From positions 1-22,473 of the IMG/VR virus record IMGVR_UViG_2778261256_000004: a stretch of 22,473 nucleotides of DNA; one strand, given 5' to 3'. Of the stretch, positions 3,257 through 4,691 are shown one piece after another. The position numbers were made by a program, and so were the translations under genes. A model generated the notes under the pieces. The model worked only from the letters and a program-made list of their open reading frames with translations, ran no database searches and was not told the origin of the DNA. This DNA comes from a virus (taxonomy: Duplodnaviria > Heunggongvirae > Uroviricota > Caudoviricetes). Each line of letters starts with the position of its first letter. Within the stretch, counting starts at the first letter, position 1.

Positions 3257-3513
3257 GTTGACTATGCGCGAAGGTTAATGTGAATAGTTGACTATGCGCG
3301 ATGTGACTACAGTCAAAAGTTGACTGTAGTCGATTTAACTCCACCAAAGATCGACTATGTAAGATATTGTCGGGAGAAACGTTGACTATACGCGATGAAA
3401 TGCCCCTAAAAGCCATCTCAATAGCGACTTGCAGAATATTGACGCCAGCAAAAATCCACCAGCGTCAACGAATGTCGCCTATAGTCAACTTCTCGCTATC
3501 GCATATAGTCAAT
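3257..3513. repeat. incA: incA-type iteron array (copy-number control locus) downstream of repA
   Basis: Repeated 14-15-bp core GTTGACTATGCGCGA and variants: direct copies near 3257, 3287, 3319, 3349 and 3381; a palindromic pair GACTACAGTC/GACTGTAGTC at about 3304-3332; an inverted half-site pair TTGACGC/GCGTCAA at about 3439-3469; two reverse-orientation copies at 3477-3513 abutting the repA stop. Same core as the origin iterons. Confidence 0.75.
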
Positions 3514-3514
3514 A

Positions 3515-4399
3515 TTATGGATTGCGCTTATGGATCTGGAAGCCGATTTTCCTGCCGTTTTTTATCTCTGAAAATTTAAGATATTCAATAGCTTCCAAAT
3601 CTTTCATGGCTTTTCTGATAACGCTATTTTGCACGCTAACGGATGATTTGAGATTAAGCCTCGCTCTAAGGCGCTCAATGCTGACAGGTGCCGGGTTGGC
3701 GGGTAGAGCCTCAAAGAATGTATACAGTACCTTGGCCGTCTCTTTGCGCCCTAGTTTATCCAGCATCTTCAGCTTCAGGATTCGCTTATAGTCAACATAG
3801 TAAAGTTCAGATAGCTGTTTCTGCGGCTGGATCTCGATAACATCAAGCTCGGTATTCAGGCTGCTATATGCCAACAAGTTGACGTTAATGTTATTGAGAT
3901 GACCTTTTGCCGCCGGGAAGCGGAATTTGACAACTGTCTGCTGAATGCGTGTCAGAGAGTCATCAATACTTTTACGGAACGCCTTTGAAAGGCGCTTACG
4001 TGGATAGCCGCATCGATCGGCAAACTCGGAGAATGGCAGGGTGATTATGCCGTCATCATCAGGTGCGTAGTCAAACAACGCGGAGGTTATGCCCACCCAC
4101 ACCTTAAAATCAGTATCCATATCCAGGCGTGGACCATGAATTTCAATTCCCTCATAGCCTTCCTGCTCAACAATTTTGAGGCTTGATAGTTCTTCAGTTG
4201 CGTTCGTTGTGTTTGTTGTAACTGACGATCCGCGACGTAGCGCCACATTGGTAGATTTTAAGGTTGGCACAAACACACCTAAGCGCAACAAAGCGATGGG
4301 TTGTATAGTGCTGTTGTTATTGGGCTTCAGGCTGTGGATTTCTCCTGTATTTCCTGCAACTTCTTCAACGCTAAGGAAGCCTTTACTTTCTTCCGGCAT
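3515..4399 (-). CDS. repA: RepA iteron-binding replication initiator (P1 RepA / RepFIB family)
   Basis: The ORF track gives a 306-aa frame from TTG at 4435. The ATG at 4399 behind a GGAG RBS is the likelier start, giving 294 aa. Conserved blocks LLRLGVFVP and GPRLDMDTDFK are typical of P1-family RepA. Flanked upstream by five origin iterons and downstream by incA. Confidence 0.88.
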   Translation of the reverse strand: MPEESKGFLSVEEVAGNTGEIHSLKPNNNSTIQPIALLRLGVFVPTLKSTNVALRRGSSVTTNTTNATEELSSLKIVEQEGYEGIEIHGPRLDMDTDFKVWVGITSALFDYAPDDDGIITLPFSEFADRCGYPRKRLSKAFRKSIDDSLTRIQQTVVKFRFPAAKGHLNNINVNLLAYSSLNTELDVIEIQPQKQLSELYYVDYKRILKLKMLDKLGRKETAKVLYTFFEALPANPAPVSIERLRARLNLKSSVSVQNSVIRKAMKDLEAIEYLKFSEIKNGRKIGFQIHKRNP

Positions 4400-4481
4400 C
4401 ACGGTTTCTCCATGTGTGGCGCGGCCTGACGTCAATTTGGATGGCTGTTATCAACAGCTGTGAATATTCAGACTCTAAAAT

Positions 4482-4580
4482 CGCTTACAGTCAATGTTTC
4501 TGTCGCGTATAGTCAACAATAAATCGCGTGCAGTCAACAATAAATCGTGCACAGTCAACATAAAATCGCGTATAGTCAAT
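4482..4580. repeat. oriR iterons: five direct repeats at about 21-bp spacing
   Basis: CGCTTACAGTCAAT (4482), CGCGTATAGTCAAC (4504), CGCGTGCAGTCAAC (4525), CGTGCACAGTCAAC (4546), CGCGTATAGTCAAT (4567), each followed by an AT-rich spacer (AATAAAT). Lies immediately upstream of the repA start on the minus strand. Confidence 0.8.
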
Positions 4581-4691
4581 GTTGATCCCATTTCAGGCCA
4601 GTAATGACGCGGCTTACAGCGATCCGGGATCTTCTTTGGATCTTCCTAGGTTCTCTTTAGGATCTGTTTATTGGATCTATGCTGTGGATAA
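4581..4691. other. oriR auxiliary region: cluster of six GATC (Dam) sites plus a DnaA box
   Basis: GATC at about 4584, 4621, 4628, 4639, 4661 and 4674, four of them in GGATCT(T/G/A) heptamer-like repeats. TGTGGATAA at 4683-4691 is the complement of the DnaA box TTATCCACA. A second DnaA-box-like TTATCAACA sits in a palindrome at 4444-4458 on the other side of the iterons. The layout mirrors the P1 oriR architecture (DnaA boxes, GATC heptamers, five iterons, repA). Confidence 0.6.

Follow-up and report, generated by a model that had tools for sequence, protein, structure and literature searches.

The window (the whole stretch of 22,473 nt analyzed here) contains a complete iteron replicon on its minus strand. 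Read from position 4691 down to position 3257, a DnaA box, a cluster of GATC sites, iterons, repA, and a downstream array follow one another. The first-pass annotation had recognized this P1-style layout, with five iterons between the GATC cluster and repA and an incA array with iterons in both orientations, and every one of these parts was recovered at its position. At the outer end of oriR lies a perfect DnaA box (TTATCCACA, 4683 to 4691, minus strand). It is followed by six GATC (Dam) sites between 4584 and 4677 (at 4584, 4621, 4628, 4639, 4661, and 4674), most of which are located within GGATCT-type repeats; at the GATC density of the whole window, 94 nt would hold 0.38 sites rather than six (Poisson P of ~3e-6). 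The five origin iterons, the equivalent of incC, are direct repeats on the plus strand (4482 to 4580) with the core CGYRYAYAGTCAAY. They start at 4482, 4504, 4525, 4546, and 4567, which corresponds to a spacing of 22, 21, 21, and 21 bp, and each of them carries TTGACT, a near-consensus −35 element, on the repA-sense strand.

The gene repA (4399 to 3515, minus strand) encodes a protein of 294 aa, matches the RefSeq annotation, and has GGAGA 8 nt upstream of its ATG. Between the iterons and this ATG lies the sequence GCTGTTATCAACAGC (4444 to 4458), an imperfect inverted repeat with 6-nt arms and a 3-nt center, which had been described as a DnaA-box-like palindrome at the repA promoter. The DnaA-box-like core of that description is indeed present, but the sequence is not a true palindrome, and the scan found no promoter there; no sigma-70 promoter of repA meeting the scan criteria was found on the minus strand. 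On the plus strand, the scan gave promoter matches within the iterons, which probably reflect no more than the TATAGT that the repeat contains. Altogether, the repA leader has two DnaA-box-like sites that match the box in eight of nine positions (4448 to 4467; TTATCAACA on the plus strand and ATATTCACA on the minus strand), and they align opposite the leader between iterons and repA of P1 (gtgtggatagtttttataagtggtgataac), which itself has similar sequences. In plasmid pO111_2 (NC_013370.1 = AP010962), the counterpart of the inverted repeat is GCAGTTATCAACAAC, in which the arms are broken and the TTATCAACA core is retained. Since the arms are not conserved and the core is, the predicted DnaA-box-like core is likelier than the arms to be the functional element of this repeat.

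Downstream of repA, an incA-equivalent control array with at least seven iterons extends over both strands from 3257 to 3513. Two copies (3476 and 3500, plus strand) have the orientation of the origin iterons and are located beside the repA stop codon, with the 3500 copy ending one base before it. The five copies starting at 3257, 3287, 3319, 3350, and 3381 have the opposite orientation (minus strand) and are spaced by 30, 32, 31, and 31 bp. In addition, a variant iteron on the plus strand (3302 to 3316) faces the 3319 copy, and the two form an exact 12-nt inverted repeat (GACTACAGTCAA, 3305 to 3316, and TTGACTGTAGTC, 3320 to 3331). This was one of two palindromic arrangements noted in the array before; the other one, TTGACGC (3439 to 3445) and GCGTCAA (3462 to 3468), is likewise an exact inverted repeat and represents a pair of iteron 3′ half-sites.

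The conserved core of the iterons is T-CGCGTATAGTCAAC, and their consensus is TCGCGTATAGTCAAC. The exact 14-mer CGCGTATAGTCAAC occurs only once per strand (4504 to 4517, plus; 3381 to 3394, minus), and the remaining copies are variants of it. With a position-weight matrix (PWM) built from 12 copies, the whole window was scanned. The 12 matrix-building iterons reached 19.7 to 30.7 bits, 11 of them at least 25.6 bits, and the best site outside the replicon reached 8.6 bits. The top score apart from the 12 copies, 14.8 bits, belongs to an iteron-like site within the repA coding sequence (CGCTTATAGTCAAC, 3783 to 3796, plus strand), which is conserved in pO111_2. The short motif TAGTCAA is found 10 times in the window (2.3 expected), and eight of these occurrences are within 3258 to 4579, six in iterons and two in repA. 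As P1 has nine incA iterons, a ninth or tenth copy was considered in the array as well; however, positions 3439 to 3468 hold just half-sites (GTCAAC) with PWM scores of at most 8.1 bits and were not counted.

RepA shares 42% identity with RepA of P1 (BLASTP, E = 9e-71), which bears out the divergence from P1 RepA that had been suspected by eye, and 47% with RepA of RepFIB (BLASTP, E = 1e-85). P1 RepA is 48% identical to the same RepFIB protein. In Pfam, RepA matches Rep3_C with 27.3 bits (cutoff, 21.1) and falls 0.4 bits short for Rep3_N (22.0 bits; cutoff, 22.4), and P1 RepA has a similar pair of matches. NCBIfam has no family for RepA or for P1 RepA, and a PDB sequence search with RepA gave chance-level matches only, with no solved structure detectable. 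Judged by its homologs, RepA is an iteron-binding initiator of the Rep3 winged-helix type that belongs to the family of P1 RepA and RepFIB RepA. The locus combines the structural features of the iteron replicons of the P1/RepFIB family: the homologous initiator, five phased iterons with a DnaA box and GATC sites, and a bidirectional array.

On the far side of the array, the minus strand encodes a protein of 269 aa (2413 to 3222), known as gp57 in phage JL22, whose gene is absent from P1. Residues 8 to 85 form a T5orf172 domain (Pfam PF10544, 26.5 bits; cutoff, 20), the protein is annotated in RefSeq as "GIY-YIG nuclease family protein," and a weak match to a PHROG annotated as "endonuclease" was obtained. 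There was no NCBIfam family for this protein and no match to a PADLOC defense or nuclease model. Just after its stop codon, a hairpin (GCCCCTGAACGGGGC, 2391 to 2405, minus strand) followed by a T-run resembles an intrinsic terminator.

The adjoining P1-type partition module (30 to 2327, minus strand) comprises parB (30 to 1031), parA (1048 to 2244), and the par operator/promoter, which reaches to 2327. Compared to the P1 reference (AF234172), 397 of 398 residues of ParA and all 333 residues of ParB are identical, and P7 is not among the megablast matches for positions 1 to 2400, so both proteins are of the P1 rather than the P7 species. The window holds the last 25 nt of parS (1 to 25, with boxA1 and boxB1), which match P1 at every position and differ from P7. 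Hence, the earlier reading of ParA, ParB, and parS as P1-identical holds for ParB, holds for ParA with one exception, and holds for parS over the 25 nt present. The backbone is also P1-like. Aligned over 86% of its length, the whole window has 98.2% identity to P1 (for phage JL22, 98.7% over 97%), and the genes are arranged in P1 order, with parB-parA at one side and upfA-mlp-ppfA-upfB-upfC followed by uhr-hrdC-dmt at the other.

The homology to P1 breaks off within this backbone. At the left boundary (2343/2344), 16 nt upstream of the −35 element of the par promoter, identity is perfect up to 2343 and there is none past it. The right boundary is graded, with 68% identity over 4584 to 4699 and 92% from 4700 on. 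The flanks are 92 to 99% identical to P1, compared to 32 to 48% within the cassette: repA has 48% identity at the DNA level, and the iteron arrays (38% at the origin, 32% for incA, aligned identity) are unrelated in sequence. Neither P1 nor P7 is among the megablast matches for the replicon. A megablast match of P7 began at 4589, and we therefore considered whether P7 shares the GATC part of the origin; in direct alignments, the GATC/DnaA part (4584 to 4699) was 68% identical to P7 and also 68% identical to P1, so P7 is no closer. Neither a RepA near-identical to that of P1/P7 (IncY) nor the 19-bp P1 iterons in incC or incA are found here, and the earlier impression that the iteron core differs from that of P1 was correct. 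With flanks that match P1 so closely and a breakpoint this sharp, an exchange of the replication cassette is the only reasonable reading, just as the first-pass annotation had proposed. The swapped cassette spans about 2344 to 4699 and includes the T5orf172/GIY-YIG gene.

Could the same picture result from a fast-evolving P1 replicon that mutated in place, within the P1 lineage and without any exchange? RepA is a true homolog of P1 RepA, the architecture is alike, and the 68% identity that is left in the GATC/DnaA part of the origin, the very reason for the graded right-hand boundary, would fit gradual divergence. However, divergence in place does not account for flanking genes with 92 to 99% identity next to a repA with 48% and iteron arrays with 32 to 38%, for a left boundary where identity falls from 100% to no similarity within a single nucleotide, or for the presence of an additional gene. 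Intermediates are also nearly absent: a tblastn search of 72,556 PLSDB plasmids with RepA returned at least 5,000 matching records, with 392 at ≥99% identity, 6 at 80 to 99%, and the others below 60%. Furthermore, in a survey of Salmonella, 17 changes of replicon type were inferred along the backbone tree (PMC11165635), and such a phylogeny speaks for switching. We therefore regard divergence in place as extremely unlikely.

The replicon that took part in the cassette exchange is of a known type. RepA is identical to RepA of pO111_2 in 292 of 294 residues, and AP010962 is the reference record for the p0111 rep gene ("p0111 repB") (PMC11165635). At the DNA level, positions 3230 to 4720 have 99% aligned identity to pO111_2; within the replicon, the two differ by point differences only, which are concentrated in the leader and 5′ end of repA (~15 in 4386 to 4507). 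The neighbors are those of p0111 elements as well, namely the T5orf172 gene, P1 parAB, and upfA. Hence, both a near-identical p0111 rep gene and the backbone of a P1-like phage-plasmid are present. The replicon segment is 100% identical over 1,521 nt to phage phi456 and to many plasmids of E. coli, Salmonella, Shigella, and Klebsiella, and it is 97.8 to 98.4% identical to SJ46, RCS47, JL22, and Ro157c2YLVW. Among PLSDB plasmids, 399 carry the segment, as do 415 of 5,426 complete E. coli genomes. In all likelihood, positions 2344 to 4699 are thus the p0111-type replication cassette of a P1-like phage-plasmid (Punavirus), which stands in place of the IncY replicon of P1 beside an unchanged parABS module. 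One of the plasmids with the identical segment carries the MOB-suite label "IncHI1B," which indicates that typing schemes disagree on the p0111 replicon.

Some GenBank records annotate this initiator as "RepFIB replication protein A," and the cassette might accordingly be a RepFIB variant that was captured recently from an IncF-type plasmid. RepA is slightly nearer to RepFIB RepA (47%) than to P1 RepA (42%), it reaches up to 48.6% identity to FIB-type proteins of Klebsiella, the layout is shared, and the RepFIB iteron core ACTGTAGTCAG is similar to the variant iteron GACTACAGTCAA of the array. P1 RepA, however, is equally near to RepFIB (48%). By these identities, p0111, P1/IncY, and RepFIB belong to one replicon family as three branches at about equal distance from one another, and each branch has its own iteron. 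Moreover, no donor is visible, as no PLSDB plasmid outside the p0111 cluster exceeds ~49% RepA identity (tblastn), and the p0111 type has been reported in P1-like elements only (PMC9603915). A recent capture from RepFIB is therefore very improbable.

A separate question is whether the T5orf172/GIY-YIG gene could drive the spread of the p0111 cassette, by encoding a homing-type nuclease that cuts the IncY allele and thereby triggers gene conversion. Its domain (residues 8 to 85) is related to GIY-YIG, and there is the weak PHROG "endonuclease" match. The gene lies right at the left breakpoint, where homology to P1 ends sharply; it is inherited together with the replicon (401 plasmid records with the gene versus 399 with the replicon), and elements often switch their replicon type (PMC11165635). 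On the other hand, the replicon persists in pO111_2 even though two ORFs stand there in place of the single, intact gene found here, and the lack of matches to defense or nuclease models in PADLOC and NCBIfam speaks against a homing function. Movement of the gene independent of the replicon was not seen among the plasmid records, and ordinary homologous recombination within flanks of 92 to 99% identity accounts for the switching equally well. We consider homing to be very unlikely; if it did take place, active conversion of IncY into p0111 would explain why replicon switches are so frequent in phylogenies of P1-like phage-plasmids.

The p0111 replicon as such and its exchange with IncY have already been published and are common, p0111 being found in about half of the P1-like phage-plasmids. 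In JL22, repA of IncY is replaced by repA′ of p0111 together with gp57, and p0111 was present in 24 of 55 elements (PMC9603915). Pfeifer and Rocha reported p0111 for 63 of 119 and IncY for 52 of 119 (PMC10879196), and RepA of SJ46 was described as 42% identical to P1 RepA (PMC5241659). Seemingly undescribed in the searchable literature is the anatomy of p0111 at the level of iterons, which are mentioned alongside p0111 only in a general review. What we add is minor: a map of the p0111 origin, its iterons, and its array at base resolution; the exact boundaries of the exchange; and the three equidistant RepA lineages.

How may the p0111 replicon work? The following model of binding, initiation, copy control, autorepression, and changed incompatibility is derived from the biology of P1 and RepFIB. 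As in the P1 model, RepA monomers would occupy the five oriR iterons, which are in helical phase, and the host DnaA would bind to the perfect outer box and to two weaker inner sites. RepA and DnaA together may then open the adjacent GATC-rich region, which lies between the iterons and the outer box, with the methylation state of the Dam sites gating initiation. Copy number would be limited by the seven to eight iterons downstream of repA, through titration of RepA and through pairing with the origin ("handcuffing"). RepA probably represses its own gene, as in P1; even though the scan revealed no repA promoter, such an autorepression is plausible because the origin iterons are directly upstream of repA and each of them has the near-consensus −35 element TTGACT. 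Since the iterons are different, the incompatibility that results from replication control (the equivalents of incA and incC) should differ from that of IncY. Incompatibility by partition (P1 parS, incB) should remain as in P1. No incompatibility experiment with p0111 was found in the searchable literature, and the paper on an O111:H8 strain (PMC13596339) gave no evidence of co-residence of IncY and p0111. Our map could aid in the design of incompatibility tests or of mini-replicon vectors that are compatible with P1-derived (PAC) vectors. Replicon typing and surveillance of P1-like phage-plasmids, which carry resistance genes, already make use of the split between p0111 and IncY.

Compared to P1 (AF234172) and P7, the p0111 replicon has the same plan and a different sequence. 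P1 has five incC iterons spaced by 22, 21, 21, and 21 bp, with Dam sites and DnaA boxes beyond them, then repA and nine incA iterons ~31 bp apart, of which the three repA-proximal copies have the orientation of incC and the six distal ones are inverted. The order and orientation of the parts, the five iterons with the same spacing, the ~31-bp spacing of the array, the pattern of proximal and distal orientations, the outer position of the DnaA box and the GATC cluster, the homologous RepA, and the position between upfA and parA are all shared by P1/P7 and the replicon described here. Different from P1 are the iteron itself (TCGCGTATAGTCAAC here versus the annotated 19-bp repeat of P1, e.g., GATGTGTGCTGGAGGGAAA), the number of incA copies (seven to eight clear ones versus nine), and the additional T5orf172 gene between incA and the par promoter; the number of outer DnaA boxes differs as well, with one here and a tandem pair in P1/P7. 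RepFIB, as found in pAA-09EL50 (NC_018654.1), has the TTATCCACA box, a pair of GATC sites, five upstream iterons at 21 to 23 bp, and bidirectional downstream iterons in common with p0111, but its iteron is ATAAACTGTAGTCAGT, and its RepA has a C-terminal extension of ~30 aa. Furthermore, the backbone of RepFIB is a conjugative plasmid, whereas the p0111 cassette of this window is carried by a phage-plasmid.

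The replicon's most variable stretch, when the window is compared with pO111_2 (NC_013370.1), the reference plasmid of the p0111 replicon type, is the 5' end of repA together with its leader, in which we counted about 15 differences over 122 nt (4386-4507); outside this stretch the two replicons differ by roughly 1-2%. Both amino-acid changes in RepA (residues 2 and 5) fall within 4386-4507, and the arms of the imperfect inverted repeat at 4444-4458, located between the origin iterons and the repA start codon, are also among the differences. Within the repA coding sequence, at 3783-3796 on the plus strand, lies an iteron-like site, CGCTTATAGTCAAC, that departs from the degenerate core pattern CGYRYAKAGTCAAY at a single position and is identical in pO111_2. 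In a scan with a position weight matrix built from the 12 iterons of the replicon, the site reached 14.8 bits, the top score apart from those 12 copies. It could be an additional RepA-binding site, or it could have arisen by chance.

The T5orf172/GIY-YIG gene that accompanies the p0111 cassette (2413-3222, minus strand) is intact in the window and encodes 269 aa; its product is covered end to end by phrog_2876, a PHROG labelled as of unknown function. In pO111_2, in contrast, the gene is annotated as two separate ORFs (2597-2977 and 3071-3406 of the pO111_2 locus compared), and since it is split there, maintenance does not depend on it.

Resources disagree in naming the p0111 replicon. PHROGs and several RefSeq phage records label its RepA "replication helicase," some GenBank records have "RepFIB replication protein A," and NZ_CP027133.1, whose replicon is 100% identical to that of the window, carries the MOB-suite type "IncHI1B" in PLSDB. 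In a search of complete E. coli genomes, 8 of 468 places with a replicon match were on chromosomes (e.g., NZ_CP007393.1, 2214977-2216437), which suggests either that P1-like elements have integrated there or that these replicons were misassembled or misassigned.

ParB and ParA of the window are 100% and 99.7% identical, respectively, to those of reference P1. The par region of RCS47 (FO818745.1, 64054-66453) is 99.3% identical to window positions 1-2400, for which P7 gave no megablast match; judged by these alignments, the published statement on the RCS47 par region appears to be wrong. The tci/tRNA part of the P1 backbone carries three tRNA genes on the plus strand, Asn-GTT, Thr-TGT, and Met-CAT (11134-11287 and 12924-12999); tRNAs for these three amino acids are also reported for SJ46 (PMC5241659), and the surrounding region (10640-13191) also has 92.9% identity to phage D6.

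At the outer end of the origin, the window has one DnaA box (4683-4699 region) in place of the tandem pair seen in P1 and P7, and the stretch 4683-4699 is 7 nt shorter than its counterpart in reference P1 (9922-9945 of the P1 locus compared). The GATC at 4661 is intact in the window (GGATCTG) but degenerate in P1 (GGACCTG); conversely, P1 has an intact GATC (GGGATCT) where that of the window is degenerate (AGGTTCT, ~4650).
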